DNA from: an uncultured Muribaculaceae bacterium
GTDB taxonomy: Bacteria > Bacillota_I > Bacilli_A > RF39 > UBA660
Direction: 5' to 3'
DNA: 64,000 nucleotides
Assembly (NCBI GenBank): GCA_964616485.1
Contig: CAZTRB010000005.1
Span: forward strand, 11,592-75,591
Under the pieces are notes generated by a model. That model had not been told where the DNA came from and did no database searches. It saw only the letters and a list, made by a program, of their open reading frames with translations. Position numbers and translations under genes: made by a program. Below are positions 5,637-39,073 of the stretch, piece after piece (positions within the stretch are counted from its first letter, which is position 1; every line of letters begins with the position of its first letter).

Positions 5637-5783
5637 CACCAGTTCGTAATGGCGAATTGGTCGCTAGTATCACACTAGCCAACCCCTTTTTATTCTTTTT
5701 TGTGAAGGGCCTTTCTCAGGGGGAAGGCTCTTCCTATTTTATAAGAAAAACAGAGTAACATAAGTTACTCTGTTATTTTTTTG
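5637..5783 (+). ncRNA. candidate small RNA (unclassified), ~145 nt
   Basis: Predicted TSS just after the promoter above. Contains an internal GC-rich hairpin (5702-5731, gaagggcctt/aaggctcttc) and ends at a strong hairpin plus U-tract (5751-5783). Its last ~19 nt are antisense to the PFOR stop region. Confidence 0.3.
5745..5783. terminator. bidirectional rho-independent terminator; hairpin contains the PFOR stop codon
   Basis: cagagtaac-ataa-gttactctg at 5751-5772, flanked by an A-run (5745-5750) and a T-run (5773-5783). Confidence 0.7.
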
Positions 5784-8700: not shown

Positions 8701-9193
8701 TAAAAGGAACTTTACCTTCCATCGTAGAAAGATAACTAACGTTACTTAAATCCATTACTTCTTGAACAGAAGAGGATTGTAATATAGCAAACCCCGTCGT
8801 TCTAGCAGCATAGATATCTTGATGATCTCCTAAAATAGAAAGCGAATGACTCGCTAAAGAACGAGAAGCTACATTTATAACACAAGGAAATAACTGCCCT
8901 GCAATCTTATACATATTAGGAATCATCAACAAGAGTCCTTGAGAAGCCGTAAATGTCGTAGCTAAGATACCATTTTGAAGAGCACCATGAACCATAGCGA
9001 TAGCACCGGCTTCACTCTCCATCTCGACTACTTTTATTTTCGATCCCCAATAATTCTTCTTCCCTTCAGCACTCCAACTATCGACATTCTCAGCCATAGG
9101 TGATGCGGGTGTTATCGGATATATACCGGCTAGTTCAGAAAAATTATAAGCGACTAAACTACACGCTTCATTACCATCCATTATCTTATACAT
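5765..9193 (-). CDS. nifJ: pyruvate:ferredoxin (flavodoxin) oxidoreductase, single-chain PFOR
   Basis: N-terminus MDGNEACSLVAYNFSELAGIYPITPASPMAE. Two 4Fe-4S ferredoxin motifs (CIMCNMCAFVCP, CTGCGLCVNICP). TPP-binding region GGDGWAYDIGYNGLDH. Start taken at ATG 9193, with an AAAGGAG RBS upstream. Confidence 0.92.
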   Translation of the reverse strand: MYKIMDGNEACSLVAYNFSELAGIYPITPASPMAENVDSWSAEGKKNYWGSKIKVVEMESEAGAIAMVHGALQNGILATTFTASQGLLLMIPNMYKIAGQLFPCVINVASRSLASHSLSILGDHQDIYAARTTGFAILQSSSVQEVMDLSNVSYLSTMEGKVPFINTFDGFRTSHELQKIEVIDFQKVKELINEDALKEFRSRALSINNLTRGTNTNDDIYFQLSEARNKYYDNLPDIVNEYMKKINAITGRDYKPFNYYGAKDATKIIVAMGSICETIKETINSLKGEKIGLIEVHLYRPFSSKYLLDVLPDTVTDIAVLSRTKEHGTSEPLYLDISNVIRETGKNIKVVGGRYGLSSKDTDPSLINAVYKFLDRKDKFNGFTIGIKDDLTNLSLDPITLTVDNETKEVVIYGFGSDGMVSVSKDIIKIVGNNTDSYVQGYFEYDSKKSGSVTKSHMRFASKPIKSTYYVNKPCLVVCTKDSYLSKFDMLDDIVENGTFIVNTFKDDKELFKALSNKDRAIIKNRNIKVYSLNANKISNEVGLGNKINTIMATAIFKVSKLIDFEIAFKEIKKALETLFKNKGTEVIEKNNRAIDRALETLTIVDFSGFDDIEDNKSSFVGKSIFDLINERRGYSIPVSEFEKIVDGSFVGGRSKEEKRNITDTVPVYNEENCIMCNMCAFVCPHGVIRPFLLNEEEVENAPESLKAKLIDANIKDQNLKYAIGVNIEQCTGCGLCVNICPGKKGEKALVMTAIEQINDEETLRETDYLFNVVTEKQVMTLNTVKGSQFATPKFEYSGACAGCGETPYIKLLTQLFGEELVIANATGCSSIYGGSVPSTPYSVPWANSLFEDNAEFGFGMRVSEVIHKDKIKMILRDNLSKINDNDLEVVNSYLEDTNLENSKRLYEIVDSLNIPELLEEKDFIKTKSFWIIGGDGWAYDIGYNGLDHVLASNEDVNILVLDTEMYSNTGGQASKSSKYGGIAKFAASGKETHKKNLAKMAMTYPHVYVATVSLGANMMQTIKAFNEAKNHKGPSLIIAYSPCIVQGIKAGMGTSIEEEKKATESGYFPIFRYNPTTEEFSLDSKADFDKYEEFLDGENRYAALNKVNPEKKDDFYDINKREAIRVYEHYESLKEDKKITE

Positions 9194-10142
9194 CAATATT
9201 TCTCCTTTTTAATCCCTTACTCATCTCTTTAATAATGTATATAGGTCTTTTCTTTATCTCTGAATATACCTTCGATAAATAGGCTCCTATTATTCCTAAT
9301 GAGAATAGTTGAACTCCTCCGACGAAGAAGATTAACCAAAATACTAATAACACACTACTTATAGAGACATCTATTATTAAGTTTACCACAATTATAACGA
9401 ATAAGACAAACGCTACGAGAGAAAATAATAGACTCATTACAAAAGGAATCATCAAAGGAACTGTTGAAAAACCAATTATTCCCTCGAAAGCATACACTAA
9501 GAGATTCCAAAAACTCCACTTAGTATTACCTGCCACTCTCTCGACATTCTTATACTCTAACCACTTAGTCTTAAATCCAACGAAAGTAAACAGACCTTTA
9601 GAATAACGATTATACTCTCTCATCGTCAAGATTGAATCGACTACTTGTCTTCTCATCAATCTAAAGTCTCTAGCTCCATCGACCATCTCTGTCTTAGAAA
9701 TTTTATTTATCAACTTATAAAATCTTCTAGCAAAGAAACTCCTAATAGGTGGTTCTCCTTTTCTAGTCGTCCTCCTACAAGCTACGACATCGTAGTCCTC
9801 CTCTTTAATAAGACGATACATCTCTTCTAAAAGACTAGGTGGATCTTGTAAATCAGCATCAAGCGTCGCTACATAATCTCCAGTCGCATGTTCTAATCCC
9901 GCTAAAACAGCACCTTCTTTACCAAAGTTTCTAGAAAGAGAAATATACTCTACTCTCTTATCTTTCTTCTTTAATTCTTTAATATATTCTAAAGTATTAT
10001 CTTTAGAACAATCATTGACAAAGACAAATTCAAAATTAACTTTCTTTAAGTTTTCTGCTATCCTAGTTACTTCTTCATAAAAGTAAGGAAGCGACTCCTC
10101 TTCATTATAACAAGGAACGACTAACGATATTTTTTCTCTCAT
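9186..10142 (-). CDS. GT2 polyprenyl-phosphate sugar transferase (GtrB/CsbB-like), with C-terminal TM helices
   Basis: ISLVVPCYNEEESL ... DADLQDPP (DxD) motif plus two C-terminal TM helices. Overlaps the PFOR start by 8 nt. Confidence 0.8.
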   Translation of the reverse strand: MREKISLVVPCYNEEESLPYFYEEVTRIAENLKKVNFEFVFVNDCSKDNTLEYIKELKKKDKRVEYISLSRNFGKEGAVLAGLEHATGDYVATLDADLQDPPSLLEEMYRLIKEEDYDVVACRRTTRKGEPPIRSFFARRFYKLINKISKTEMVDGARDFRLMRRQVVDSILTMREYNRYSKGLFTFVGFKTKWLEYKNVERVAGNTKWSFWNLLVYAFEGIIGFSTVPLMIPFVMSLLFSLVAFVLFVIIVVNLIIDVSISSVLLVFWLIFFVGGVQLFSLGIIGAYLSKVYSEIKKRPIYIIKEMSKGLKRRNIDV

Positions 10143-10143
10143 A

Positions 10144-11592
10144 CTATTCTTTAATCCTTCTTTCTATTTTTTCAAAGATTCCCATATACCTAACATAAGC
10201 GTCTTTTTCCAAAGGAATCTCATAATACTTTTTAAGTTCTTTTAACTCTTCACTATTTATCGGGTTAAACTTATAGACTAGTTTTAAAGGGTTAGCTTTT
10301 ATCTCGATAGTATTTTGATTAGATTCTAACTGTTCTTTAATGTATTCTCCCCTAGTCTTCTCAAAATAAGATATTAACAAGAAAGAAGAGATATAATAAA
10401 TTACTAACAAGCTCGTTAATAAGACGACTCTCTTACTAACATTAAATTCTTTATTACTAACAAATATTGCTAAGGAACTAATTAAAAATAAAGTAAAGGC
10501 ATAATTATTACCAAAGTCCCACTCCTGTGATATAAGACTAAAAAGACTAACTGCAATCGAGAAGATAAATAAGACATTTATTAATCTCTTACTCTTTAAA
10601 TCTTTACTATAATAGTGAAGACTTCTAATCAATAAATAAAAATATAATAAGTAATAAAAAGCATAATACCAATTCTCTACTGCAAAGAAACCGTTATAAC
10701 GATTAATTACTAAAGTTAAAGATACTGGCGAATAGAAAGAGAAATTATAAATAAAAGAAAAATACAAGATGATATTAAATAAGACGATAAGTATTCTAGA
10801 GTAAATCCCTTTAAGTCTTTCCCCTAAATAAAAGTTAATCGGTATCGTCGACAATATTATTAATAATATATTTCTAGAAAAAGTATTTTCGATAAAATCG
10901 GGAATACTATTAAAGACATAGTTTATATCGAGAATAAAAATACTCTCTTTAAAGAAACTAAAGACGAATAATAAAGTCAAGAGATGAAAGATTACTACTA
11001 AGAGATACTTTTTATTATAATTACATATTAAGTAAAATATATTTGCTATAACAAAAGAAATAGCGATGAAGATAGACGAGGTAATAACATAACTACCGAG
11101 AAGTATCATCATGACATAATCACGATAGTTTCTCTCTTTATCTCTTATACTAAATAGACTATAGAAATATATAAAACCTAGTAATATCGGTATCGTATAA
11201 CTAAAAGCACCACTTACAGAGACGTAATTATAAGCAAACATATCGACGCTGACTAAAAGCATTAATAAAAATGTTATCACATACATAAACTTGTTCTTTA
11301 CTATTCCTAATAGAGTGTTGGTCCTAAAGACAAACATCGAAGTAACTATCGCTATTATCAGATTAAACCAAACTTTATTATAAGAGAATATATTAATAAA
11401 AAAACCACTTATTACTCTTCCGTCTAAAATAGAAGAATTTTCTAAATTATAAGCGATCCCCTCTTTACCTAAAGAAAAAAAAGCCCAATCTATTCCACCT
11501 AATGGAGATAAAAAAGCCACTATCAAAAAGAAGAAAAAGACATATGTCGTTAACTTATATTTATAATCTATCGTTTTAATTCTATCATTCAT
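10144..11592 (-). CDS. polytopic membrane protein (>=10 TM), putative GT-C glycosyltransferase or glycan polymerase partner of the GtrB-like enzyme
   Basis: Hydrophobic throughout, with a ~75-aa soluble C-terminal tail. Sits immediately next to the GtrB-like GT2 in the same operon. Confidence 0.5.
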   Translation of the reverse strand: MNDRIKTIDYKYKLTTYVFFFFLIVAFLSPLGGIDWAFFSLGKEGIAYNLENSSILDGRVISGFFINIFSYNKVWFNLIIAIVTSMFVFRTNTLLGIVKNKFMYVITFLLMLLVSVDMFAYNYVSVSGAFSYTIPILLGFIYFYSLFSIRDKERNYRDYVMMILLGSYVITSSIFIAISFVIANIFYLICNYNKKYLLVVIFHLLTLLFVFSFFKESIFILDINYVFNSIPDFIENTFSRNILLIILSTIPINFYLGERLKGIYSRILIVLFNIILYFSFIYNFSFYSPVSLTLVINRYNGFFAVENWYYAFYYLLYFYLLIRSLHYYSKDLKSKRLINVLFIFSIAVSLFSLISQEWDFGNNYAFTLFLISSLAIFVSNKEFNVSKRVVLLTSLLVIYYISSFLLISYFEKTRGEYIKEQLESNQNTIEIKANPLKLVYKFNPINSEELKELKKYYEIPLEKDAYVRYMGIFEKIERRIKE

Positions 11593-11600
11593 AAAGTCTC

Positions 11601-12080
11601 CTATAACTTATCTATGTAATCCTCTATTAATTTTACCATATTTTTAGTATTACTCTCATACTTTTTAGGTTTAAAAGTCTTAGCTTTTTCTAAAGTCTTA
11701 GAAAGTTTATTAAGATCTTTAAGAGGAAGTATATATTTCTTAGAACTTAATTGTTCGATAATCTCTAATTGATGATCGTTATCATGCTCTTTAAACTTCT
11801 TTAGTCTAGGAGCAGCTATTACAACTTTATTATATTCTAATCCCTGTAAGATAGAACCTACTCCACCATGAGTAATTAATAAACTACAATCTTTAATCAT
11901 CTTAGCAAACTCTTCACGAGAAATAAAATCAAAGATTTTCATATTAGGACTCTCATACTTAGTATGACCTGCTTGGACAATTACTTCTTCTTTAATAGTT
12001 CCTTTCTTTATCTCTCTATCTATTTGCTCTAATAAACGTTTAAACTCTTTATCTTGAGTTCCAAGAGTAACTAATATCAT
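11601..12080 (-). CDS. Alg13-like glycosyltransferase subunit (GT28 C-terminal domain; Cps14G/EpsF-type)
   Basis: MILVTLGTQ ... THGGVGSI motifs. Start ATG 12080 overlaps the Alg14-like stop (TAATG), and a G-rich RBS lies upstream. The ORF-track GTG extension is not used. Confidence 0.75.
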   Translation of the reverse strand: MILVTLGTQDKEFKRLLEQIDREIKKGTIKEEVIVQAGHTKYESPNMKIFDFISREEFAKMIKDCSLLITHGGVGSILQGLEYNKVVIAAPRLKKFKEHDNDHQLEIIEQLSSKKYILPLKDLNKLSKTLEKAKTFKPKKYESNTKNMVKLIEDYIDKL

Positions 12081-12550
12081 TAGTAAATCCACCCCCCATA
12101 AACCGCTTTAGGATAAAGTTTTAACATACTCTCCCATTGAACGATAAATAAATCGGCAAAGAGATAGATTAACCTTCCCGTAATCGTCTTACTCTTACTA
12201 TTAGCAAGCGTCTCGATATAAATAATCTTACTACCGAATATTTTACCGACACAACACATTGGTCCTGCCGTATGAGCACCAGTAGTTATGATTACTTTAG
12301 GTCTAATCTTAAAGTAAAGAAAGAGACTCTTAAAAGAATTATATATTAACTTAAAGGGATAAGTTAATAAATGAGCCTTAGTTCCATAGACTAAATACTT
12401 TACTTTTCCCGGATATTTATCTTTTAAAGTCATATTAGATTTAGTCTTTTCTGTTATTATATAGTGATCATATTTCTCAAACATCGAAGACAACTTCATC
12501 ATCTCAGATAAATGACCACCAGTAGAAGATATAAATAAAACCTTTTTCAT
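12080..12550 (-). CDS. Alg14-like glycosyltransferase membrane-anchoring subunit (Cps14F-type)
   Basis: VLFISSTGGHLSEMMKL motif. Translationally coupled to the Alg13-like gene. Confidence 0.7.
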   Translation of the reverse strand: MKKVLFISSTGGHLSEMMKLSSMFEKYDHYIITEKTKSNMTLKDKYPGKVKYLVYGTKAHLLTYPFKLIYNSFKSLFLYFKIRPKVIITTGAHTAGPMCCVGKIFGSKIIYIETLANSKSKTITGRLIYLFADLFIVQWESMLKLYPKAVYGGWIY

Positions 12551-12557
12551 AAACCAC

Positions 12558-13772
12558 CTATTTTAGTATTTTAAACCAATCTTTCTCTATATTTTTAGCT
12601 AAGTACTTTTGAGATATTTTAAGATTCTCTTTACTTAGTTTTTCTCTATACTTATTATCTTTTAAAATAAGAACGATTTTTTCTTTTAAAAGGCTTAAGT
12701 CTCTATTAGGTATCAAAACATCACTATTATCTTCTAAGACTTCACATATTCCCTTAGCACTATCGAAACCAATAACAGGAAGTCCATAACTAGCAGCTTC
12801 GATTACGACTAAACCGAAAGACTCCGAGAATGATGTAGTTACGAAAAGAGAACTATCTAACATATACTTTTCTATCTTATCTTTAGATAAAAATCCGAGT
12901 AATTCGACATTATCATTTAAAGATAATTTCTTAATTTGTTTCTCTAAATTACTTCTTTCAGACCCATCACCGATTAGGTAAAGCTTAATATTAGGTATAT
13001 TTTCTCTAACCAAAGATAATACTTCTAAAAGGTCAGAGTGTCCTTTTTCTAGAGATAATCTTCCGACATTGATTATGTTATTTGTCTTTAATAGAGATTT
13101 TTTCTTCGGCAATTCGTCTAAGACATTGGGTATATAAAGACACTCTACATTCGTCTTATCTTTATAAAAGTCTCTGAGTTCTCTAGATACTAAGATAAAA
13201 TAAGAAAATCCTTTAATAGAAGATACTAACTTTCTAACATATTTTTTATCGTTATTATGATAGTTGTGATCGGTAACAATTTTTACAATATGTCTATTAC
13301 CATAAGTAGATACTAATCTATTATGGAAGGTCCTAGTAGTAATTACATACTTGCTATTTATTTTAATAATAGCATTAATATTTAAAAGACTTTTTTTAAA
13401 TAAGAGAACAAGAGCTATATATGCTTGTTTTAATATACCAAAGATATTCTTATTAGTTAATTCTTTTTTAAACTCTTCTCTATTAGGTTTAGAATCAATT
13501 AAATATTTTATCTTAATCTTCTTATCAAAATAAAACGCGGGTTGTTCTAGCAACTTATAAGTAGTTATAATCTCTATCTCAAACTTTTTATCTAGCATCT
13601 TACAAAGAGAAGACAAGTACTTTTCGATACCACCATATCCTAAATGAAGAGCTAATATCGTTATCTTATTTTCTTTTAGTTTTCTCTTGTTATATTTTAA
13701 AATTAAAAACACTAAAAATAAGATAATAACAAAAGACAATAATACTAATAACAGTTGCAATATATCACACAC
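12558..13772 (-). CDS. GT4-family (GT-B) glycosyltransferase with an N-terminal TM helix
   Basis: GRLSLEKGHSDLLEV ... ESFGLVVIEAASYGLPVIGFD (the E-x7-E region). Confidence 0.8.
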   Translation of the reverse strand: MCDILQLLLVLLSFVIILFLVFLILKYNKRKLKENKITILALHLGYGGIEKYLSSLCKMLDKKFEIEIITTYKLLEQPAFYFDKKIKIKYLIDSKPNREEFKKELTNKNIFGILKQAYIALVLLFKKSLLNINAIIKINSKYVITTRTFHNRLVSTYGNRHIVKIVTDHNYHNNDKKYVRKLVSSIKGFSYFILVSRELRDFYKDKTNVECLYIPNVLDELPKKKSLLKTNNIINVGRLSLEKGHSDLLEVLSLVRENIPNIKLYLIGDGSERSNLEKQIKKLSLNDNVELLGFLSKDKIEKYMLDSSLFVTTSFSESFGLVVIEAASYGLPVIGFDSAKGICEVLEDNSDVLIPNRDLSLLKEKIVLILKDNKYREKLSKENLKISQKYLAKNIEKDWFKILK

Positions 13773-13812
13773 TTTCTAAGTATAGTTTATCACTTTTAGA
13801 AGAATAATAAAA

Positions 13813-13847
13813 TAGCAAGAAAAAAGATATCTTTTTCAAGATATCTT
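13813..13847 (-). terminator. rho-independent terminator of the giant prepilin-like gene (overlaps its stop codon)
   Basis: Two copies of the palindrome aagatatctt separated by tttc (13824-13847), preceded on plus by an A-run 13816-13823. Confidence 0.6.
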
Positions 13848-16800
13848 ATCCCCAATTTTCACAACCACAAGCTGCTGTTCTACAAGAATTATTTCCTCCT
13901 ACACAAGTACTATAAGTGTATAGACAATTATTCCATCCACATGCACTATGTTGACAATAATAGTATCCGGCACATCCACAGCAATCATTATAACAGGTTG
14001 CAGCTTCCTCACCAGAAACACAACATGTTGTCGAAGTTTTATACCATGTTTGGCCACCCGAACTAGGTTTGCTACTTGCACACTTAGTTCCGCACCCATA
14101 ACCTCCTGTGTTTTGGTAACATTCATAGATATTTCCTTTAGTTTTACAATATGTTCCGCAACAAGAGTAACTAGTACATCTTTTATTTCCAGTACATCCG
14201 CATCCGGCAGTATAACAAGAATTATATCCTCCAACACAAACGGACGGGTTACCTGTTAAACAAGAATTCCATCCACAATTAGCATGTTGACAACTCTTAT
14301 TGGTAACACAACTCGATGTTATAGAACAAGTTCCTGTATTACCCGCTCCATCTGTAACCGTGTATGTCTTTGTACCTTTAACATTTGAATCATTATATGT
14401 AGCTGGAGATACTCCACTTGCATTATCAGAAGTTGTAACTTTTACGGTTATTCCATTAGCTCCATTCGCTGTTTTAACAGCAGTACAAGTAGGATTAACT
14501 GTATCTCTTTTTATCGTAAATACATTAGATGCAGCAGATGCATTACCTGCATTGTCAATTGATCTTACATAGAAATTCCAATTCCCATCCCAGTTTATCG
14601 TCCATGGATTTGACATTGCTGTCCAATTTGCAGCATCATGACTATACTGATAACTAGCAATTCCAGAACCAGTTCCGTCCGAAGATGATGCAGTTATTAC
14701 AACATTAGATTTTGTCCAAGTGCCTGAAGTATAAGAACCTAGATTGATCGTTGGTTTTGAAGGTTTTGTTGCATCTCTCTTTATTGTTACGACATTTGAA
14801 TTATCACTTATGTTACCAGATTTATCTATAGCCCTTACATAAACGTTCGTAGATATATCTGAACTAATTGTCCATGGATTCGACATCGTCGTCCATCCCG
14901 ACGTCCCATTAGTACTATATTCATATCTATCTAAGTTAGTATCCGATGAACTCGCTGTTATGACAATATTTTGATTTGACCATGTATTAGATGTATATGT
15001 AGTACCATCTGCTTTTTTCAAGGTTAAAGTTGGTTTCGACGGTTTCGTCGCATCTCTTTTAACATTAAAGACGTTTGACACATCACTTATATTACCAGCA
15101 CCATCAGTAGACCTTACATAGTAATTACTTTCGACATCTGTACTAATTGTCCATGGATTTGCCATATTTGTCCATCCTGAAGTTCCATTAACACTATATT
15201 CATATTTACTTATTCCTGAAATATTATCAGTTGAACTTGCCGTTACGACTACATTGCCAGAGGTCCATGTCCCTGAAGTATAAGAACCTAAATTGATCGT
15301 CGGTTTCGATGGTTTAGTAGCATCCCTTTTGATAACTACGGCATTAGATACATCACTAACATTTCCTGAGGAATCGATTGCTCTTACATAGATGTTTGTC
15401 GAAGTATCCCAGTTAATCGTCCATGGATTTGTCATAGCCATCCATCCCGATGTTCCGGTCGTACTATATTGATATCCAGCTAAGTTATCATCAGTTGAAC
15501 TTGCTGTAATGATTATATTTTGATTTGACCATGTATTAGATGTATAAGTAGAATTGTCTGCTTTCTTCATTGTCAATGTTGGTTTTGATGGTTTCGTCGC
15601 ATCTCTTCTAACAATAAATGGATTTGAATTATCACTTACGTTACCAGCACCATCAGTCGATCTGACATAGTAAGTTTTATCGGTATCGAAGTTTATCGTC
15701 CATGGATTTGACATCGTCGTCCATCCTGAAGTTCCATTGTTACTATATTCGTATTTGCTTATTCCCGAAATATTATCAGTTGAACTTGCCGTTACGACGA
15801 CATTACCAGAAGTCCATGTACCAGAAGTATACGAACCTAGATTAATCGTCGGCTTCGATGGTTTAGTACCATCTATTTTTACCGTTTGGTTGTTCGGACA
15901 AGTAACACAGTTTCCTGCTCTATCACAAACCTCGCCCGGTCCAGCCGTCGTCGTATTTATATCACTAGTATAAGGTTTAGTAATTGTCGTATTTACACAA
16001 CCACTACCACTATCACTACAAGTACCAATTATATTTACAGTCGTCTTACTCCATGCAGAACTTCCACCACTACTTACACAAGTTGGTTTCGTCGTATCGA
16101 TCGTATCGACGACTACCGCTTTATTAGTAACATGTCCAGCTTGGTCCTTAACCCACACATAATATGTACCATTATCAGAAGCTATATTTGGAACACCAAT
16201 TCCAAAACTAGTTCTTGCCGATATAGCGGTAAATGTCGGTTGTGTCGTCGAACTCTTATTTATACCGTAACCGATTATTCCTGAATTAGTATCTGTTCCG
16301 GTAAATACTATCGTTCCGTTAAGTCCGTCTTGACCAGTATCGATTATCGTCGAGTACGCTACATCCCAACTTACTGAAGTACCAGAACCCGTCAAGTAAA
16401 CGTGTCCGAAAGTCGAGAACGTTCCCGAACTACCCGCTTTTTGAATATAGATATATTCTGCCCAATCTCCAGTTCCAGCTTGTGGAGTGATCCAGTAGAC
16501 GCTTGAACCTGTACCGGTAGAATTAGAAGCTCTTTGAATAGTATACCCAACTGGTATCTTTGCAATTATTCTATGAGCATATACAGCATTAGCTCTCGAA
16601 GTTACAGTTTGAACATAACCTCCTAATCCAGGAGAACTGACACCATTTGTCGTTATTCTCATAACGTATGAACCATATGGGTTAGATTGAGCTACTCTAG
16701 CGTGAGTAACAGTACCATTTCCACTATTATTATATACGCTAAAGTTATTTGTCCCAGAAGCAAACGTCGGATCTTTGAATAACGGAGTCCCTGATATTGC

Positions 16801-18897
16801 TTCTGATATAACCGGAGCATTTTTATCTATTCTTACGATTTGGTCAGCCTGGCAAGTAGTACAGTTTCCTGCATTATCACAAACTTGTCCAGGTGATTCA
16901 TTAGTCGAATTTATATTAGAAGTATATGTTTTCGTTACCGTCGAATTCACACAACCACTATCAGCGTCATTACACGTTCCAGTAATCGTGACATTCGTCG
17001 TTTTCCATGTAGCGCTTCCACCACTATTTATACATGTTGGTGGTTCGTTATCGGCAGTTATCGTTTGGTGATACCATCCGCCACTATTTGGCGATTGAGT
17101 TATGACGTTACCAGCATTATCAACTAGTCTCGTATAAACGGTATATACTCCTCCAGGTAAACTAACAACGTGTTTATTTTGTCCAGTAATAGATGTAATG
17201 CCACCTACAGCAACACCGTTTCTTTCCATCTTGACTTGGAACTCTTTAATACCACTCAAATTATCAGCAACCGTAATTGTCAACGTTTGATTAGCACTAT
17301 ATACTCCCGTTAATAAGCTATAACTTGCAGTAGGAGCCGTCTTGTCGATTCTAGAAATCGTTACTGATGAAGGATCAGATGATAAACCGACAACGTTTCT
17401 CGTACGAACTTGAGCATTCGTTACATTTGACGAATAAATATTATAATTTGTCGATTGCCAAGAAGCGCCATCATTAAACGAATACTCAGTCGTTCTAACT
17501 AATCCAGCTCTTGGAATCAAGTTAACTTTTACATTGTTCTTAGTCCAGATACCTGGAGAAGCAGCGACTAAATCAATTCTAGAAACATTGTAAGATACAC
17601 CACTTAGTGCTCCTAAAACTAATCTAAAGTTAGAGTATTGTCCAACCGAAGGTAAAATAAACTCTATGTCTCTAGTACCTTGAATCATTAATGCTGATAC
17701 TGAGAGTTCATTCCCATTTTGATCTTTAAAGTAGACTCTACCCGTCGTCGTCGTTGGAATATTAGTATTTAAAGTCACAGTTAATTTCTTAATACCATTA
17801 AATGTCGGATACGAAGCAGTACCAAACGTTATAACTGGGTTTGTCGTAGTCGTCGTTAGTATTGTACCCGCTAAATTTAACCCCGAAAGAGTATATTCAT
17901 ATTGGTTAGGGAACAATTGATATGCATACTCAACATCAAATTCTGGTTTTGGAACACCCACTCTTACGTCGATTGAACAAATCCCCTCATTACCCGCTTC
18001 GTCTTTAACATAACCTACGACTGTCGTAAGTCCCATATCTAATTTAAGACTATCTTTTTTATTATAATCAATATTCTTTATACTAGTACCAAGTCCATAA
18101 GTTAAAAGTCCACTATCAGCATCATCTTTAGTATCGAACTTAACATAAACGTCTCCCGAATACCACCCTAACGCTTCTAAGTTTCCGCCATCTCTAATAA
18201 GTGTACAAGTTGGAGGAGTCTTATCGACATATACTTTTACCGGACAACTAGTTTGATTTCCACTCTTATCAACTATATTAATAAAACTCTCAGTAGTAGT
18301 CGTACCAAATGTCTTAGAGAATCTAGCTAAACGACAACCACTAGTTTGGTCACTACAACCAACACTAATTGTTCTATTTTCCTTAGTCCATGTAGTAGAT
18401 TCACCTATGACACTACCACATACCGGATTATCATTATCAGATTCATACTTAGAACAAGCCGAACCTTCAGTAGAATAATTTTCACAATACAAACACGCTC
18501 TATATTCGTAGTCACCACTAACTTTGCTTACCTCAACATAACTAAGTAAACTATTACAAAATCCATCTGTTTCCGGATCTTTTAATTCATCAGAGTAACC
18601 TTTTTCAATAACATCACTCAAATAGACAATAGATCTATCTCCATCGCCTGGTAAATTACAAGTGTAATCATTATTAGCAATACAATCAACAACCATGTTA
18701 TTCGTAGCTGTTTGCATATTCTTTTCATAAGCTAAATAAGTATTATCCTTACTACTTCCAATATAATTAGAAATAGCCGGAACTGTAATGATTGCCAATA
18801 TAGCAATTATCACGATAACGGCGATTACTTCTATTAAAGTAAACCCTTTCTTTTTCTTGGCTTTTTCCAAAATTTTACTAACAGTTTTCTTTCGCAT
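13846..18897 (-). CDS. giant modular type IV pilin-like protein (~1683 aa): class III signal peptide, cysteine-containing HYR/Ig-like modules, five tandem Ig-like repeats and a cysteine-rich C-terminal domain
   Basis: MRKKTVSKILEKAKKKKG|FTLIEVIAVIVIIAILAIITVPAI is a canonical prepilin leader, with Gly at -1, Phe at +1, Glu at +5 and a ~21-residue hydrophobic helix. AAGGAG RBS 8 nt before ATG 18897. The ORF-track upstream extension is translation of the promoter. Repeats of ~88-95 aa begin DATKPSKPT. The last ~160 aa contain about 34 Cys. Confidence 0.8.
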   Translation of the reverse strand: MRKKTVSKILEKAKKKKGFTLIEVIAVIVIIAILAIITVPAISNYIGSSKDNTYLAYEKNMQTATNNMVVDCIANNDYTCNLPGDGDRSIVYLSDVIEKGYSDELKDPETDGFCNSLLSYVEVSKVSGDYEYRACLYCENYSTEGSACSKYESDNDNPVCGSVIGESTTWTKENRTISVGCSDQTSGCRLARFSKTFGTTTTESFINIVDKSGNQTSCPVKVYVDKTPPTCTLIRDGGNLEALGWYSGDVYVKFDTKDDADSGLLTYGLGTSIKNIDYNKKDSLKLDMGLTTVVGYVKDEAGNEGICSIDVRVGVPKPEFDVEYAYQLFPNQYEYTLSGLNLAGTILTTTTTNPVITFGTASYPTFNGIKKLTVTLNTNIPTTTTGRVYFKDQNGNELSVSALMIQGTRDIEFILPSVGQYSNFRLVLGALSGVSYNVSRIDLVAASPGIWTKNNVKVNLIPRAGLVRTTEYSFNDGASWQSTNYNIYSSNVTNAQVRTRNVVGLSSDPSSVTISRIDKTAPTASYSLLTGVYSANQTLTITVADNLSGIKEFQVKMERNGVAVGGITSITGQNKHVVSLPGGVYTVYTRLVDNAGNVITQSPNSGGWYHQTITADNEPPTCINSGGSATWKTTNVTITGTCNDADSGCVNSTVTKTYTSNINSTNESPGQVCDNAGNCTTCQADQIVRIDKNAPVISEAISGTPLFKDPTFASGTNNFSVYNNSGNGTVTHARVAQSNPYGSYVMRITTNGVSSPGLGGYVQTVTSRANAVYAHRIIAKIPVGYTIQRASNSTGTGSSVYWITPQAGTGDWAEYIYIQKAGSSGTFSTFGHVYLTGSGTSVSWDVAYSTIIDTGQDGLNGTIVFTGTDTNSGIIGYGINKSSTTQPTFTAISARTSFGIGVPNIASDNGTYYVWVKDQAGHVTNKAVVVDTIDTTKPTCVSSGGSSAWSKTTVNIIGTCSDSGSGCVNTTITKPYTSDINTTTAGPGEVCDRAGNCVTCPNNQTVKIDGTKPSKPTINLGSYTSGTWTSGNVVVTASSTDNISGISKYEYSNNGTSGWTTMSNPWTINFDTDKTYYVRSTDGAGNVSDNSNPFIVRRDATKPSKPTLTMKKADNSTYTSNTWSNQNIIITASSTDDNLAGYQYSTTGTSGWMAMTNPWTINWDTSTNIYVRAIDSSGNVSDVSNAVVIKRDATKPSKPTINLGSYTSGTWTSGNVVVTASSTDNISGISKYEYSVNGTSGWTNMANPWTISTDVESNYYVRSTDGAGNISDVSNVFNVKRDATKPSKPTLTLKKADGTTYTSNTWSNQNIVITASSSDTNLDRYEYSTNGTSGWTTMSNPWTISSDISTNVYVRAIDKSGNISDNSNVVTIKRDATKPSKPTINLGSYTSGTWTKSNVVITASSSDGTGSGIASYQYSHDAANWTAMSNPWTINWDGNWNFYVRSIDNAGNASAASNVFTIKRDTVNPTCTAVKTANGANGITVKVTTSDNASGVSPATYNDSNVKGTKTYTVTDGAGNTGTCSITSSCVTNKSCQHANCGWNSCLTGNPSVCVGGYNSCYTAGCGCTGNKRCTSYSCCGTYCKTKGNIYECYQNTGGYGCGTKCASSKPSSGGQTWYKTSTTCCVSGEEAATCYNDCCGCAGYYYCQHSACGWNNCLYTYSTCVGGNNSCRTAACGCENWG
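14500..15870 (-). repeat. five tandem ~265-285 bp intragenic repeats (alternating two subtypes) encoding Ig-like modules
   Basis: Recurring ...ggtttcgatggtttagtagcatc... blocks at about 15834, 15571, 15290, 15036 and 14741. Protein repeats are TKPSKPTINLGSYTSGTWT.../TKPSKPTLTxKKAD... Confidence 0.8.
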
Positions 18898-18931
18898 AAT
18901 AAAGCTCCTTGTATTATCTTTTATATATAAC

Positions 18932-18960
18932 ATTTTAATATCTTTATACATAATAGTCAA
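18932..18960 (-). promoter_or_regulatory. sigma-A-type promoter of the prepilin-like gene (TTGACT-17-TAAAAT)
   Basis: Reverse complement of agtcaa at 18955-18960 gives the -35. Reverse complement of atttta at 18932-18937 gives the -10. The spacer is 17 nt. Confidence 0.5.
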
Positions 18961-19043
18961 GAAAGATTTAGTCGTTAAATCTTTTAGTTTTTTGTAAAAA
19001 GTTGTCTAATTCCTTATAAATTATGTAAAACTTTCCTAGCAAG

Positions 19044-19072
19044 TAGACACTATATACAATATATTATATAAT
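19044..19072 (+). promoter_or_regulatory. sigma-A-type promoter of the dockerin-hydrolase gene (TAGACA-17-TATAAT), divergent from the pilin-like gene
   Basis: tagaca at 19044-19049, a 17-nt spacer, tataat at 19067-19072. Confidence 0.5.
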
Positions 19073-19105
19073 TATATTACTAATAATGGCATGGAGGTGT
19101 AACAA

Positions 19106-21121
19106 ATGAAGAGATTTTTATTCGTGATTCTTTTGATATTGCTTCTTTTTAATAGTGGAACAGCACATGCAGAAATTATTAAGACTGGTCGGGCTATAGC
19201 CGATGTTGGGCTTAGAATTAGAGCTACTCCCTCTACTAGCGGAACACAATTAGGAACGATACCCTATGGAACGATAGTTAGAATCATCGGTGAAGCGAAT
19301 GGTTCGGGATGTAACGATCCTTGGTTTCAAGTAATTTACTCTACTGGTAATAGTAATATAAACGGTTATTCTTGTTCTACTTATATAACGGAAATTACGG
19401 AGTATGATACTGAAGAGAATACGCCTACAACACCACCAGTAAATAGCGAGGACTTCGAAGCCTACTTAACTTCACAAGGATTCCCAGAAAGCTACAAAGT
19501 CAAACTAAGAATTTTACACGAACAACATCCTAATTGGATATTTGTCGGTATAAAAGTAAGAGAGTCTTGGCAAACGTCTTTAAATCTTCAAGGCGAAGAT
19601 GGAAGAAGTACATTAAATGTTAATGCGGCAAGAAAGGCTTTGGGGCAAGAGGGATATTTATCGACTGCAGCGGGACACTATAACTATGAGACTGACACTT
19701 TTATTCCTAAAGATGGTACTTATTGGTTTCAAGCTAACTCAGATGCTATTGGATATTACCTTGACCCAAGAAACTTCATGGACGAGAAAAATGTTTTCAT
19801 GTTCGAAAGTCTTTTACAAAACGATGCTATTCATACTAAATCAGTAGTCGACGGGATCTTGTCGAGTGACTTCATGAAACAATATTCTAATCATTTCATG
19901 AAAGGTGCAAGAGACTACAACGTTTCTGCTACGCACTTAGCATCACTATCTAGACAAGAAGTAGGAATTACTAACGGTAACATTGTTACTAACGGAAAAG
20001 CCGGAGTATTATCAGACGGAGTTAACTATAACGGTTACTATAACTTTTTTAATATCGGAGCATCATCATCGGGAGATCCGAAGTTAAAATCGTTACAAAG
20101 CGCTAAAGCTCGCGGCTGGAATTCACCTGAGAAATCAATCGTTGGTGGAGCGGCTTTTATATCTAGTGGTTATATTAATGCCGGACAATACACGGCTTAT
20201 CTTCAAAAGTTTAACGTCGATCCTAATGCTACTAAAGGAATATGGCATCAGTATATGACTAACATAGCGGCATTATCTTCGCCGGCAATTACGACATATA
20301 ACTCATATAATAATCTCGGTTTCATAAACCATTCATTTATATTCTCGATTCCAATATTTACTAATATGCCAGAAAGCACTTCGTTACCTCCCTTAGGTAA
20401 CCCAAATAACTGGCTAAAAGAAATAAAGATAAATGGTATCGCTTTATCTAGTTTCTACGGTGGTACCACTAATTACACCATCGATATTCCTTACGAGGAA
20501 GAGATTACAGTAGAGGCTAAAAAAGTAAATAGTAACGCTACTGTATCAGGAACTGGAACAAAAGCCTTAACGGAAGACAAAACCACTTTAACGATTAAAG
20601 TCACTGCTCAAAACGGAAGCGTTAAAAACTATACGGTAACAGTTAATCGTGGGATAAAAGACGATCCTAACTTAGAGATAGATCTTCTATTAAAAGATGT
20701 CTTAACTGATAGCAAATACAAATACGATAGTAAAAATCTTTGGGGAATAACTCTAGGAACTAGCGTTAAGAGTCTTACTAGTAAAATAAAAGGAAAATAT
20801 AAAACAGTAAGTGTAAATATAAAAAATAAAGACGGCAATACTAAAACAGACGGTGTCATAGTTACAGGAGATAAAGTAACGATAACGACTAAACAAGAAT
20901 CTACTACTATCGAAGTAATAATCTTTGGTGATACTAATGGAGACGGATACATCTCGGCAATCGACATCTTAAGCGCTCAAAAACATATCCTTGGATATAC
21001 TACTCTTTTAGGAACTAGTTTCAAAGCGGCAGACATAAATAAAGACGGTGTCATATCAGCTTATGACTTACTACAATTTCAAAAACACGTCTTAGGTTAT
21101 ACTAATATAAGCCAATCATAG
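19106..21121 (+). CDS. secreted multidomain putative peptidoglycan hydrolase: signal peptide, SH3b, GH73/glucosaminidase-like domain, cadherin-like beta-sandwich and a C-terminal dockerin
   Basis: GGAGGTG RBS. Signal peptide ...GTAHA. SH3b-like region IRATPSTSGTQLGTIPYGTIVRI. GH73-like motifs LSRQEVG...NFFNIGA...YMTNIAA. Cadherin-like region LKEIKINGIALS...TIKVTAQNGSVKNYTVTV. Dockerin repeats GDTNGDGYISAIDIL and DINKDGVISAYDLL. Confidence 0.7.
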   Translation: MKRFLFVILLILLLFNSGTAHAEIIKTGRAIADVGLRIRATPSTSGTQLGTIPYGTIVRIIGEANGSGCNDPWFQVIYSTGNSNINGYSCSTYITEITEYDTEENTPTTPPVNSEDFEAYLTSQGFPESYKVKLRILHEQHPNWIFVGIKVRESWQTSLNLQGEDGRSTLNVNAARKALGQEGYLSTAAGHYNYETDTFIPKDGTYWFQANSDAIGYYLDPRNFMDEKNVFMFESLLQNDAIHTKSVVDGILSSDFMKQYSNHFMKGARDYNVSATHLASLSRQEVGITNGNIVTNGKAGVLSDGVNYNGYYNFFNIGASSSGDPKLKSLQSAKARGWNSPEKSIVGGAAFISSGYINAGQYTAYLQKFNVDPNATKGIWHQYMTNIAALSSPAITTYNSYNNLGFINHSFIFSIPIFTNMPESTSLPPLGNPNNWLKEIKINGIALSSFYGGTTNYTIDIPYEEEITVEAKKVNSNATVSGTGTKALTEDKTTLTIKVTAQNGSVKNYTVTVNRGIKDDPNLEIDLLLKDVLTDSKYKYDSKNLWGITLGTSVKSLTSKIKGKYKTVSVNIKNKDGNTKTDGVIVTGDKVTITTKQESTTIEVIIFGDTNGDGYISAIDILSAQKHILGYTTLLGTSFKAADINKDGVISAYDLLQFQKHVLGYTNISQS

Positions 21122-21130
21122 GAGGACTTT

Positions 21131-22546
21131 ATGAAAAAAATCTTTAAACCATTTACAATGGTTTTCCTTTTTACAGTGATGTTTTTGTTTAATAATAACG
21201 TCTTGGCAGCTAACTTAAATGTCTCGATAACCTCGAGTACTAGTAGAGCGGTAGTTGGTAACAATATTACTTATACGGTTAGAGTGTCTTCTAATGCTAA
21301 ATTTGGTAATATTCATTATAGATTAGAATATGACACTTCTAAGTTAACTCATGTAAGTGGAACACTAAATAATTTTGATTTAAATGTTATCGATAAATAT
21401 TCTGCTACTTACACTTTTACTTTTAGAGCAAAAGCAAGTGGTAATGCTAGAGTAACGTTCGTAATCAACGAAGCCTTAGAATTAAATAACAATTCTTTTA
21501 ATTATAATACTAGAACCAATAAAGATATAACGATCATAACTCAACAACAATTAGAAGCTAGCTATAGTAAAAACAACTACCTATCATCTTTAAAAATAGA
21601 TAATTTTGAAATGACACCGGCTTTTAATAAAGATACTTTAGAATACTCGATAGAATTAGAAAACGATGTTAAATCAATAAATATTAGCGGTACTAAAGCA
21701 GATTCAACAGCATCAGTCGAAGGTTTGGGTGCACATGAATTAATAGAAGGACCAAATAAAATAAATATAAAAGTTACTGCCCAAAACGGTGCCTCTAGAA
21801 CATATACGATAAATGCAACGGTAAAAGAATTAAATCCCATTATCGTAACTGTCGACGGCAAAGAATATAATGTCGTTAGAAAAAAAGACCTAATAAAAAA
21901 ACCTAATAGCAAATACGAAGAGACGATTATACAAATAAATGAAGAAGATGTCCCAGCTTTCATAAACGAGACGACTAAAGTAACATTAATCGGGCTTAGA
22001 GATGAAGAGGACAACATTTCTTTATTTAGTGTTAAAAATGATACGTATATTCCTTACCAAGAATTCGCTTTTAGTAGTATAATATTTACGGAAGAAAATT
22101 TAGACGATCTTCCTAAAGGTTATACTAAAACTAAATTAAAACTCGAAGAAGTAGAAATAGACGCTTATCAAGATAACTCTAACTTAAATTTCTACCTAAT
22201 AAAAGGAGTGAACATTGAAACGGGAATAACTTCCCTATATCAATATGATAGTAAAGAAAACACTCTTCAAATATATAATGATTCATTAGCTAAACAAAAT
22301 AAGGAATTAACTAATAAGAATAATATTTATCTTTATACTATAATTGGTCTAATAGCACTCATAGCTATATCTTCCGGAACGATATTAGTAAAGACTTTAA
22401 AAAATGAAAAACCTAAAATAAAAAAAGAAGAGAAGACCGACAAAAAAGTCAAAGAAAAAGTAGAGGAACCGAAAGAACCTATCATAGAAGAAGAGAGTCT
22501 AACAAAACAAATAAAGAAAATGAAAAAAAATAAAAAACAATCTTAA
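21131..22546 (+). CDS. membrane-anchored cohesin-like scaffold protein (signal peptide, cohesin-like domain, cadherin-like domain, C-terminal TM and Lys-rich tail)
   Basis: AGGAGG RBS. Cohesin-like pattern NVSITSSTSRAVVGNNITYTVRVSSN...IHYRLEYDTSKLTHVSG...RVTFVINEA. Cadherin-like region LSSLKIDNFEMTPAF...INIKVTAQNGASRTYTINATV. TM helix IIGLIALIAISSGTILV followed by a lysine-rich tail. Confidence 0.6.
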   Translation: MKKIFKPFTMVFLFTVMFLFNNNVLAANLNVSITSSTSRAVVGNNITYTVRVSSNAKFGNIHYRLEYDTSKLTHVSGTLNNFDLNVIDKYSATYTFTFRAKASGNARVTFVINEALELNNNSFNYNTRTNKDITIITQQQLEASYSKNNYLSSLKIDNFEMTPAFNKDTLEYSIELENDVKSINISGTKADSTASVEGLGAHELIEGPNKINIKVTAQNGASRTYTINATVKELNPIIVTVDGKEYNVVRKKDLIKKPNSKYEETIIQINEEDVPAFINETTKVTLIGLRDEEDNISLFSVKNDTYIPYQEFAFSSIIFTEENLDDLPKGYTKTKLKLEEVEIDAYQDNSNLNFYLIKGVNIETGITSLYQYDSKENTLQIYNDSLAKQNKELTNKNNIYLYTIIGLIALIAISSGTILVKTLKNEKPKIKKEEKTDKKVKEKVEEPKEPIIEEESLTKQIKKMKKNKKQS

Positions 22547-39059: not shown

Positions 39060-39073
39060 CTTGACCTCCTATT

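Follow-up and report, generated by a model that had tools for sequence, protein, structure and literature searches.

A gene of 1704 codons in the window (the whole 64,000-nt stretch of DNA that was analysed) combines a prepilin-type N-terminus with an extremely Cys-rich C-terminal module. We propose, with a probability of roughly one half, that this module makes up the end, distal to the membrane, of a giant modular type IV pilin or pseudopilin, and that in it two antiparallel arms braced by disulfides form a stalk that carries a variable adhesive head. The module belongs to a rare, uncatalogued family known only from the C-termini of prepilin-type proteins in uncultured low-GC Bacillota; it is the module that is new, the kind of protein carrying it, the modular pilin, being already known. 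We infer the fold and the disulfide map of the module from sequence, and adhesion is probably the function of the head, to judge by analogy with known modular pilins. The positions of the features are collected in Table 1.

Table 1. Features of the pilin-like gene, in window coordinates
Feature	Window position	Strand	Evidence or remark
Giant modular type IV pilin-like gene	13846..18960	-	ORF list; 1704 codons from TTG
Class III (prepilin) signal	18784..18858	-	Pfam N_methyl, TIGR02532, direct sequence reading
Last Ig-like beta domain, aa 1486-1550	14311..14505	-	AlphaFold2 pLDDT 69-86, all-beta
Cys-rich module, aa 1551-1704	13849..14310	-	28 of 154 residues are Cys; unmatched among families and PDB sequences
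N-arm, motif copy a SCQHANCGWNSCLTGNPSVCVGGYNSCYTAGCGC, aa 1556-1589	14194..14295	-	
Variable Cys-rich core (candidate 'head'), aa 1590-1667, 14 Cys, some in CC and CCGC clusters	13960..14193	-	
C-arm, motif copy b YCQHSACGWNNCLYTYSTCVGGNNSCRTAACGC, aa 1668-1700	13861..13959	-	Followed by ENWG and stop
Terminator-like gene end: TAA stop, hairpin and U-tract	13820..13848	-	Fold -13.2 kcal/mol, z = -4.3

Gene, reading frame and gene end

The Cys-rich peptide quoted in the earlier note, from coordinates 13846-14345, is encoded by the 3′-end of one uninterrupted ORF, and it had been read correctly. The alignment of relatives with the gene product keeps one frame across both the preceding Ig-like domain and the Cys module, which supports the frame of the ORF. 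The gene product matches the database protein P0001 (1701 aa, in NCBI and ENA) at 100%; the database copy starts three codons downstream of the TTG, and the true start is likely the Met codon 21, at window positions 18898-18900. At the other end of the gene, an AT-rich perfect 10-bp hairpin, AAGAUAUCUU-GAAA-AAGAUAUCUU, overlaps the TAA stop and is followed by a U-tract. This hairpin was not flagged by the consensus terminator scan, because it contains only two G-C pairs. Since hairpin and U-tract stand directly 3′ of the stop, the end of the gene at TAA looks genuine.

A prepilin-type N-terminus followed by a long beta spacer

A class III signal consists of a short hydrophilic leader ending in Gly, followed by about 21 hydrophobic residues with Glu at position +5. 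In the protein studied here the leader ends in ...KKKKG and continues with FTLIEVIAVIVIIAILAIITVP, with Glu at +5. This N-terminus is recognised by Pfam N_methyl (E = 5.8e-7; 29.3 bits, cutoff 21.2) and by TIGR02532 (27.8 bits, cutoff 16.3), and the generic label of a surface protein, as used in the earlier note, gives way to a prepilin-type N-terminal cleavage/methylation motif. C-terminal to it follow six OmpL47-type beta-barrel domains and a Big_7 domain, as assigned by Pfam and NCBIfam, and then the Cys-rich module, so that two marks of a modular type IV pilin, the class III signal and an extra C-terminal module, are present. Ig-like and OmpL47-type beta domains span ∼1,400 residues between the signal and the module. 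The last Ig-like domain, with Cys1492 and Cys1545, directly precedes the module, is conserved in relatives and can be aligned with P0121, P0126, P0127 and P0129.

Within the 64-kb window, no prepilin peptidase, pilus ATPase or other type IV pilus machinery was found. PilD, PilB, PilC and PilM-like genes were absent from a Pfam scan that covered 47 of the 48 other window ORFs of at least 120 aa and left out the ORF at 5765-9196, a PFOR gene identified by synteny with locus L005 only.

Modular pilins are established adhesins (PMC8179133), and in Streptococcus sanguinis PilB carries a vWA module and PilC a lectin module (PMC8179133, PMC9934059). As in these pilins, a class III signal, a pilin helix and a module grafted on the C-terminal side are combined in the present protein; in such pilins the module is believed to sit at the tip of the filament and to serve in adhesion, and the gene can lie apart from the pilus machinery. 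The present protein differs from them in its length (∼1,700 aa, against a maximum of 860 aa in the modular pilin survey, PMC8179133), in the long Ig-like spacer described above and in a terminal module with 18% Cys and no database signature, and its incorporation into a pilus is putative. It is recognised that bacteria equip filaments with binding modules by means of modular type IV pilins. Among these pilin-borne modules, many have no database signature, and the Cys module is one such case.

Composition and internal repeat of the Cys-rich module

Cys makes up 18.2% of the last 154 residues of the ORF (28/154), against 0.6% in the other 45 window ORFs (107 Cys in 17,878 residues), and the binomial probability of this density is ∼1e-32. 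Both the extreme C-terminal Cys density and the internal duplication of a ∼33-residue Cys motif, as claimed in the earlier note, are thus borne out. The two copies of the motif, with the consensus sCQ(H/N)xxCgWNxCLTGsxTCvGG(Y/N)NsCxTxxCGC and 6-7 Cys per 33 residues, flank a core of 78 residues. Copies a and b have 22 of 34 residues in common, and the motif recurs with its six conserved Cys in at least five relatives, so that it is no product of chance. A recent duplication at the DNA level is ruled out by a nucleotide identity of only 66% and by use of the same codon at 15 of the 22 identical residues; to judge from this comparison, the duplication is old and maintained at the protein level. 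Each arm of this gene holds one motif, the N-arm measuring 44 residues and the C-arm 43, and the motif starts 6 residues from the base of the N-arm and ends 1 residue from the base of the C-arm. Among the 27 gaps between Cys residues of the module, none has CxxC spacing.

A rare family confined to prepilin-type proteins

Searches of the module against Pfam (E <= 10) and NCBIfam (E <= 1) returned only a 12-bit similarity to a C2H2 finger (E = 0.15), the same databases gave no match for nine or more module relatives, and a profile of the module family had no match among all PDB sequences at E <= 10. The module is, as had been supposed, not a described domain. With the module alone as query, a word-index homologue search gave no match, and a local phmmer search against 120 whole-protein homologues returned only the module itself. 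Relatives were retrieved by an exhaustive HMMER scan (P0121, E = 1.2e-14; P0122, 5e-10; P0125, 3.8e-5) and by profile search (P0126-P0132), and one additional module locus was found among 241 million metagenome records; the family amounts to about a dozen relatives among billions of proteins. P0123 and P0124, which also came up in the exhaustive scan, were rejected as repetitive, unrelated proteins, and Lysostaphin_N matches on P0022 and P0131 are spurious, reflecting a common 13-residue periodicity. A scan of viral contigs contained no module relative and hence gave no sign of a phage receptor-binding origin. Literature searches on cysteine-rich prepilins and on 'Cys-every-fifth' retrieved nothing relevant.

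N_methyl was found in every full-length module relative, namely P0121, P0125, P0127, P0128, P0132, P0022 and the ORF of locus L003. From this constant association with a prepilin signal, the module can be recognised as the terminal piece of a giant type IV pilin of modular build.

Matched and mirrored arms around a variable core

Across the family, an N-arm and a C-arm made of short C-x4-C units surround a variable core. The arm pairs (N/C) measure 16/16, 26/27, 29/30, 30/30, 32/32 and 44/43 residues (the last in this gene), and the long ones 107/102, 121/119, 142/142 and 179/180 residues; the pairs 97/80 and 27/49 are less well matched. Over all 12 pairs, from 16 to 180 residues, the two arm lengths covary with r = 0.99, where arm boundaries were set by our own regular expression and the C-arm of P0022 was pieced together from sub-clusters. 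Moreover, the order of unit lengths is mirrored, not direct, between the arms (10/10 in P0128, p = 0.0008; 16/18 in P0121, p = 0.002; 8/10 in P0122, p = 0.04), as measured on these three long-armed relatives with many units, the present gene having one motif per arm. The motif itself stands at mirrored distances from both arm bases across relatives, and Cys residues recur in the family with a period of 5, 10 or 13 residues. Compensated arm lengths together with mirrored unit order constitute pairing evidence of the kind used for RNA hairpins, obtained here from sequence alone.

The core is wholly different between relatives. P0022, which lies in a syntenic locus and is the positional orthologue, differs in its core and has arms of four times the length, and P0121 and P0133 are identical over 1736 nt, after which their modules are completely different. 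The two pilin genes of locus L006 that agree over their first 1.7 kb and differ in the module may be a tandem pair diversified by cassettes or a product of misassembly. In a neighbouring paralogue on L005, the arms consist of single-Cys units of 7-8 residues.

In this gene the module has the family's C-terminal position, directly after an Ig-like domain ending in ...G.TGTC.[IV].[IV], and it has matched arms with a motif at the base of each and an even number of Cys (28). It lacks the family cap CxTWGxWxxWSxxxCS...C..RT.Y, and the protein ends at CGCENWG. The cap, of ∼25 residues (WSxWSTxxCS...C..RT.Y), is present in P0121, P0122, P0125, P0126, P0127, P0129 and P0130 and is also absent from P0128 and P0131; it is frequent, not universal.

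Probable disulfides in an export background poor in Cys

AlphaFold2 with an alignment of eight sequences modelled the Ig-like domain confidently and the module with a pLDDT of 27-45, and a single-sequence model of the long-armed P0128 had a mean pLDDT of 35. The number of Cys is even in 8/8 distinct complete modules (chance 1/256), and CxxC spacing occurs only once across all complete family modules. Even counts and near-absent CxxC favour a disulfide-bonded distal domain over metal binding; thus, of the disulfide tip and the metal-binding module between which the earlier note had hesitated, the former is preferred and the latter loses ground.

The exported neighbours of the gene contain 0-2 Cys each, except a membrane-anchored LCP/PASTA protein with 7. 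Exclusion of Cys from exported proteins is a documented trend in Firmicutes, a group generally regarded as not depending on disulfides outside the cell (PMC2823432), and against this background the Cys density is as unusual for a Gram-positive-like exported protein as had been stated. No Dsb or thioredoxin-like gene was found in the 64-kb window.

Proposed stalk and head, and competing explanations

In the proposed arrangement, the protein would be exported and cleaved by a prepilin peptidase, upon which the N-terminal helix would anchor the subunit in the membrane or at the pilus tip, and the beta domains would provide a long spacer. Within the Cys module, the arms would lie antiparallel against each other, the N-half of a motif (CQHxxCGWxxCL) facing a C-half (CvGGxxxCxxxxCG), and ∼14 disulfides would lock the arms into a rigid, protease-resistant stalk. 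This stalk would display the variable Cys-rich core as a target-binding head, which could adhere to ligands of host, mucus, cell or particle. The present gene would then represent a minimal stalk, with a single motif in each arm and without a C-terminal cap.

Because each arm holds a single motif here, each motif of this gene could equally fold on itself, and a module of self-folding motifs with unpaired arms, extracellular and disulfide-rich, is an unlikely alternative. Knottins, or inhibitor cystine knots, have ∼30 residues and six Cys connected I-IV, II-V and III-VI; a mini-hairpin or knottin-like fold of each 33-residue motif would be geometrically as good as pairing, and the conserved LTGSxT between the motif halves could be a tight turn, the core of P0122 being inserted exactly there, between the N-half and the C-half of one motif. 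In the long-armed relatives, each arm would have to form its own disulfide-braced solenoid, and the matched lengths would have some other cause. The Tenebrio molitor antifreeze protein is such a beta-solenoid, with 12-residue TCTxSxxCxxAx coils and one cystine per coil, and the module resembles it in its Cys content (∼18-19%), in a composition rich in Thr, Ser, Asn, Ala and Gly and in a short regular Cys period. However, the period is 5, 10 or 13 residues with C-x4-C in the module family, and the mirrored two-arm plan has no counterpart in the antifreeze protein. Neither insect antifreeze (PF02420) nor knottin families were matched in Pfam at E <= 10, and the family profile resembled the sequence of no solved structure in PDB at E <= 10, antifreeze included. 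Self-folding motifs leave unexplained both the tracking of arm lengths over 16-180 residues and the mirrored rather than direct order of units.

The thiols might also serve in disulfide or other bonds between molecules, with other subunits, surface proteins or host mucins, resulting in covalent bundling or adhesion. Such cross-linking would suit an exposed terminus of very high Cys density, core clusters (CC and CGC) that fit purely local pairing badly, and the avoidance of Cys by other exported proteins, which makes these thiols look special-purpose. We nevertheless consider it quite improbable, since even Cys counts in all eight complete modules are what closed intramolecular pairing predicts, and conserved spacing with mirror symmetry points to a defined fold.

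Still less probable is a Zn-ribbon-like, metallothionein-like or Fe-S module. Zn ribbons and other Cys4 sites use CxxC (or CxxH) knuckle pairs and ligand Cys in sets of four, whereas CxxC is missing here and nearly so in the family, and the Cys counts of relatives include 26, 42 and 66, which are not multiples of 4. High Cys content, two conserved His in the CQH motifs, CGC/CCGC clusters and the weak C2H2-finger similarity would fit metal binding, but His alternates with Asn in the motif, the module forms the distal end of a pilin that is exported, and no metal-binding family was matched. That the gene end is a decaying, non-functional remnant truncated before its cap, as the stop at CGCENWG could suggest where seven relatives run on for ∼25 residues, is very improbable, with an intact ORF, all conserved Cys kept in both motif copies, an even Cys count, a terminator-like hairpin directly after the stop, no cap remnant downstream of it in any frame and two relatives that likewise do without the cap.

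Returning to paired arms with a displayed head, we tentatively extend this reading to the family as a whole: mirror arms might zip into a disulfide-laddered stalk whose length is tuned by compensated gain and loss of units (16-180 residues per arm), bearing a hypervariable Cys-rich head exchangeable as a cassette through recombination inside the arm repeats. This would be a protein architecture not recognised before, and a variable-receptor system on giant type IV pilins. As the lineage otherwise excludes Cys from exported proteins, such a system would need dedicated oxidative-folding capacity. If the stalk with its head is real, it would be a new disulfide-rich fold of tunable length, a case of heavy disulfide use in a Firmicute, contrary to the Cys exclusion that generally rules there, and a candidate factor in the choice of host or partner by poorly known, uncultured Bacilli- or Tenericutes-labelled bacteria of gut and digester. 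If the module is only a compact disulfide knot, it would still give a useful new domain definition for annotation.

Likeness to other Cys-rich proteins

Antiparallel strands joined by disulfide rungs are known from theta-defensins, protegrin and tachyplesin, peptides of 17-18 residues with 2-3 rungs. These cystine-ladder hairpins are the simplest model for the single-Cys-unit arms of the L005 paralogue, whereas arms in the module family span 16-180 residues and bear a putative head domain. The C-x4-C periodicity of the family is shared with CefA (NF038108), the precursor of a Cys-every-fifth RiPP. A CefA match on P0132 is sub-threshold (E = 0.017; 15 bits, cutoff 30) and was rejected; the present protein has no match to NF038108, and no radical-SAM partner lies nearby. 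Moreover, CefA has ∼65 aa and undergoes its modification in the cytoplasm, whereas the module terminates an exported protein of 1,700 aa.

The thrombospondin type 1 repeat is a long, thin, disulfide-capped antiparallel module with a layered Cys-Trp-Arg core, and its hallmarks (PF00090/PF19030) are a WSxW strand, CSxTCG and an Arg ladder. In the relatives, the cap (WGxWSxWSTxxCS...C.sRT.Y) looks like a WSxWS strand, whereas the present gene is capless. No such repeat was matched on this protein, its module or any module relative, and a profile of 12 caps had no match in PDB at E <= 10, which leaves a thrombospondin-repeat identity of the cap unsupported.

Ephrin-receptor-like and TNFR-like repeats are extracellular, disulfide-rich and ligand-binding. 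The module has no match to them (PF07699, PF23091) at E <= 10, and its Cys spacing differs from theirs. Sibling giant prepilins from this lineage have repeats of this type (PF07699, PF23091, PF07562) where the present protein has its module, at the C-terminus, and bear eukaryote-type disulfide modules at sub-threshold scores: Ephrin_rec_like/TNFR in P0023, with matches below the Pfam thresholds, and TSP1_ADAMTS in P0037, with 21.7 bits against a cutoff of 23.8.

The cysteine-rich module and the protein that bears it

The module forms the 3′ end of a single unbroken ORF of 1704 codons (database copy P0001, 1701 aa), of which the peptide quoted in the earlier note is the correct translation. A frameshift, named there as a possible objection, does not apply: the frame is sound, as relatives co-align in-frame over both the Ig-like domain and the module. 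With 28 Cys in 154 residues (18.2%) versus 107 in 17,878 (0.6%) for the remaining 45 tabulated ORFs (≥120 aa), the module is enriched ∼30-fold over those 45 ORFs (binomial P ∼ 1e-32). This density is indeed unusual for a surface protein, since the window's other exported proteins have 0–2 Cys, with a single exception of 7. Firmicutes tend to exclude Cys from exported proteins (PMC2823432), and the giant prepilin gene is therefore an outlier within its own genome.

The internally duplicated pattern of ∼33 residues was also borne out. The two copies match at 22 of 34 residues, with consensus sCQ(H/N)xxCgW(N/D)xCLTGSxTCvGG(Y/N)(N/K)(S/T)CxTxxCGC and six conserved Cys, yet their nucleotide identity is just 66%, so that the duplication is an old one maintained at the protein level, and a recent DNA repeat is ruled out as their source.

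At the N-terminus stands a class III (prepilin) signal, ...KKKKG/FTLIEVIAVIVIIAILAIITVP, where P0001 scores 29.3 bits with Pfam N_methyl (cutoff 21.2) and 27.8 bits with TIGR02532 (cutoff 16.3). Behind it come Ig-like domains, together with six beta-barrel domains of the OmpL47 type (NF047446, E = 1e-43). P0001 is therefore a modular type IV pilin or pseudopilin of very large size, with the Cys module forming its far end. Proteins of this kind, in which a C-terminal module is grafted onto a type IV pilin, are already known: a pilin moiety with a grafted adhesive module is established for PilB and PilC of Streptococcus sanguinis, although the largest modular pilin noted in that survey has 860 residues (PMC8179133), versus 1704 codons here.

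Features of the giant prepilin gene, its surroundings and related loci (window positions unless a locus is named)
Feature	Position	Strand	Remarks
Giant prepilin ORF	13846..18960	-	P0001
Cys-rich module	13849-14310 (aa 1551 to stop)	-	starts directly after Ig-like domain ending ...AGNTGTCSITSS
Motif copy a, N-arm	14194-14295	-	SCQHANCGWNSCLTGNPSVCVGGYNSCYTAGCGC
Motif copy b, C-arm	13861-13959	-	YCQHSACGWNNCLYTYSTCVGGNNSCRTAACGC
6-Cys Ig-like domain, twice	aa 640-705, 958-1023		PTC...TC.D..SGC...C.NAGNC.TC
Five tandem OmpL47-type repeats	aa ∼1040-1480		∼88 residues each, subtypes alternating
Five-gene glycosylation cluster	9186-13772	-	directly downstream; synteny kept at L005 14475-19890
GT4 of cluster			closest in NCBIfam to SdgA, an adhesin O-glycosyltransferase, with a score well under the cutoff
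PssD/Cps14F-like gene of cluster			
PssE/Cps14G-like gene of cluster			
Polytopic membrane protein of cluster			482 aa, unannotated
GT2 of cluster			best resembles PgfS, from a protein-glycosylation system in Streptococcus (314 bits; cutoff 500)
Two secreted proteins	19106-22546	+	divergent from pilin gene
DUF5305 and signal peptidase I cluster	38019-41948	-	
Prepilin paralogue near P0022	L005 5778-9890		1370 aa
P0121 and P0133	L006 1348-4440 and 5893-8166		duplicated trigger-factor gene between

A small family with a shared plan

As the earlier note had supposed, the module is not a described domain: Pfam (E ≤ 10) and NCBIfam (E ≤ 1) returned nothing in it, and a family profile had no match among PDB sequences at E ≤ 10. 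Run exhaustively with HMMER against 1.84 billion representatives, the final 166 residues matched, besides P0001, the proteins P0121 (1.2e-14), P0122 (5e-10) and P0125 (3.8e-5); two further matches were discarded as spurious repetitive proteins. A profile run against 5.8 billion proteins contributed P0126–P0132, species genomes gave four loci, 241 million metagenome records gave one, and a viral scan gave no module relatives. Every relative with its N-terminus present carries the prepilin motif (P0121, P0125, P0127, P0128, P0132, P0022 and the full L003 gene containing P0122). The module is an uncatalogued, very rare family with unusual internal symmetry. Its sources are labelled as 'Bacilli', 'Tenericutes' or 'Mycoplasmatota' MAGs. 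Contigs L001–L004 bear relatives under the record title 'uncultured Muribaculaceae bacterium' (Bacteroidota). In gene content (prepilin genes; tig, lon, greA and YceG on L003) they resemble the window and the relatives with one of those three other labels, and the Muribaculaceae label is probably wrong.

All members follow one plan: an Ig-like domain leads into an N-arm, the arm into a Cys-rich core that varies, and the core into a C-arm, after which there is usually a cap (CxTWGsWSgWSTxxCS...C.sRTvY). Arm units are built on C-x4-C(G) and span 10 (sCaNaACGyn) or 13 residues (sCxNsACGVxsYk), and the 33-residue motif lies at the base of both arms; in P0001 each arm is a single motif and the core has 78 residues. 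When arms were delimited by a simple self-defined pattern, C-x4-5-C-[GSTLE], their lengths correlated with r = 0.99 over 12 proteins.

Arm lengths (residues) delimited by the self-defined pattern
Protein	N-arm	C-arm
P0126	16	16
P0127	26	27
P0132	27	49
P0130	29	30
P0125	30	30
P0131	32	32
P0001 (gene under study)	44	43
P0129	97	80
P0122	107	102
P0128	121	119
P0121	142	142
P0022	179	180

Mirrored order in the two arms

Reading each arm from its own base, with p obtained by shuffling, we found the order of unit lengths to be mirrored between the arms, not direct. In P0128 both arms read 13,13,13,13,5,5,13,5,5,13, a match at 10 of 10 positions (p = 0.0008), followed by P0121 (16/18, p = 0.002) and P0122 (8/10, p = 0.04); this evidence, with its self-defined boundaries, is strongest in the relatives, not in short-armed P0001. 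Direct tandem duplication or gene conversion would leave the same order in the sequence direction, and DNA duplicated in inverted orientation would specify a different peptide. The mirrored order therefore speaks for selection that keeps antiparallel arms in physical register, akin to compensatory change in an RNA hairpin. The motif is placed likewise: in P0001, P0121 and P0125 the distance from the N-base to its start is 6–14 residues and that from its end to the C-base is 1 residue, and in P0122 both copies are displaced inward by 23 residues, with the core inserted between the N-half (CQHANCGWDSCL) and C-half (CVGGNKTCTNSACG) of a third motif. This suggests an antiparallel packing of N-halves of the motif against C-halves.

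We propose, with a probability of about 0.5, that the giant modular pilin carries the module at its distal end as a disulfide-braced, two-armed stalk, presenting a variable Cys-rich head. The pairing of the arms is supported by covariation in the relatives, and the head most likely serves adhesion, by analogy with modular pilins. It is rather unlikely, given this covariation, that the arms are unpaired and form self-folding beads or solenoids. AlphaFold2 with an 8-sequence alignment gave pLDDT of 69–86 for the preceding Ig-like domain and 27–45 for the module, and a mean of 35 for the regular long arms of P0128 as single sequence.

The prepilin paralogue near P0022 on L005 has the same arm/core/arm/cap plan, with arms of 7–8-residue single-Cys units (CxxWxxxx; CNSWRNGx / CNGYEQx), numbering 8 and 7 in the two arms, for which inter-arm cystine rungs would be the simplest pairing. 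P0017 and P0028 look similar. The architecture thus appears broader than the C-x4-C unit type.

Variability of the module

The P0022 locus is syntenic with window 5765–22546 (PFOR, GT2, polytopic membrane protein, PssE-like, PssD-like, GT4, giant prepilin, divergent SH3/dockerin and cadherin-like genes), which marks P0022 as the positional orthologue of P0001; its arms are 4× longer and its core is different and shorter. On one contig, L006, P0121 and P0133 are 100% identical over 1736 nt plus 200 nt upstream, then wholly different (142-residue arms with core A versus 16-residue arms with core B), and re-converge in the final ∼120 nt. This pair looks like cassette exchange or diversification with putative recombination breakpoints within the arm repeats, or else is an assembly artefact, the coverage being 4.4×.

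Disulfides versus metal

The earlier note had offered a disulfide-knotted tip or a metal-binding module, and of these a disulfide-bonded tip is favoured. Cys counts are even in all eight distinct complete modules (28, 72, 56, 26, 24, 28, 42 and 66; chance 1/256), and the extracellular, disulfide-bonded nature of the module is the firmest part of our proposal. Intermolecular thiol cross-linking is an improbable use of these cysteines. Metal binding is more doubtful still: CxxC, a hallmark of zinc knuckles, is absent from the P0001 module and occurs once among all complete modules, the motif His alternates with Asn, and several Cys counts are not divisible by four. At the same position, two sibling giant prepilins from the whole-protein search show sub-threshold Pfam similarity to eukaryote-type disulfide modules, TSP1_ADAMTS in P0037 and TNFR/Ephrin_rec_like/NCD3G in P0023. 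Outside the module, the giant prepilin has 26 Cys, likewise even. No Dsb-like or oxidoreductase gene lies within the 64-kb window. Tentatively, the family might represent a length-tunable, cassette-swappable stalk-and-head receptor architecture that needs oxidative folding in a Cys-excluding Firmicute.

Ends of the gene

P0001 lacks the cap and ends CGCENWG. That the gene is a decaying, truncated copy is nonetheless hardly credible: P0128 and P0131 lack the cap too, and no lost continuation is encoded downstream in any frame. The stop codon overlaps a perfect 10-bp hairpin with a U-tract behind it (−13.2 kcal/mol, z = −4.3), which a consensus terminator scan did not flag because it has just two G–C pairs. 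The listed ORF starts with TTG and the database copy with an ATG 3 codons further in (window 18898–18960); taking the Met at codon 21 (MRKKTVSKILEKAKKKKG/F...) as the start would leave a leader of 18 residues, fewer than with either of these, and the start as annotated probably lies too far upstream.

Genomic context

The window is an unremarkable stretch of chromosome from a walled Bacillota of low GC content (31.6%), with RecA, RecU, DnaD, PBP1, an LCP protein, RNases J and Y and a glycosyltransferase cluster; type IV pilus machinery was not found within its 64 kb. The giant pilin is very rich in Ser/Thr/Asn, so it might be glycosylated by the adjoining cluster. Of the two divergent secreted proteins, one combines SH3_3, cadherin-like and type I dockerin domains and the other has a cadherin-like one. 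This pair borders the pilin locus of L005 as well, and the presence of a dockerin in a genome resembling those of Bacilli is a hint of cohesin–dockerin surface assembly. The DUF5305 protein is accompanied by a protein of 395 aa that contains a signal peptidase I domain of the SipW/archaeal type, and by two unannotated Cys-free ORFs of 171 and 355 aa, the first with weak DUF11-repeat similarity; the group resembles a cluster for a surface fibre or matrix that depends on SipW.
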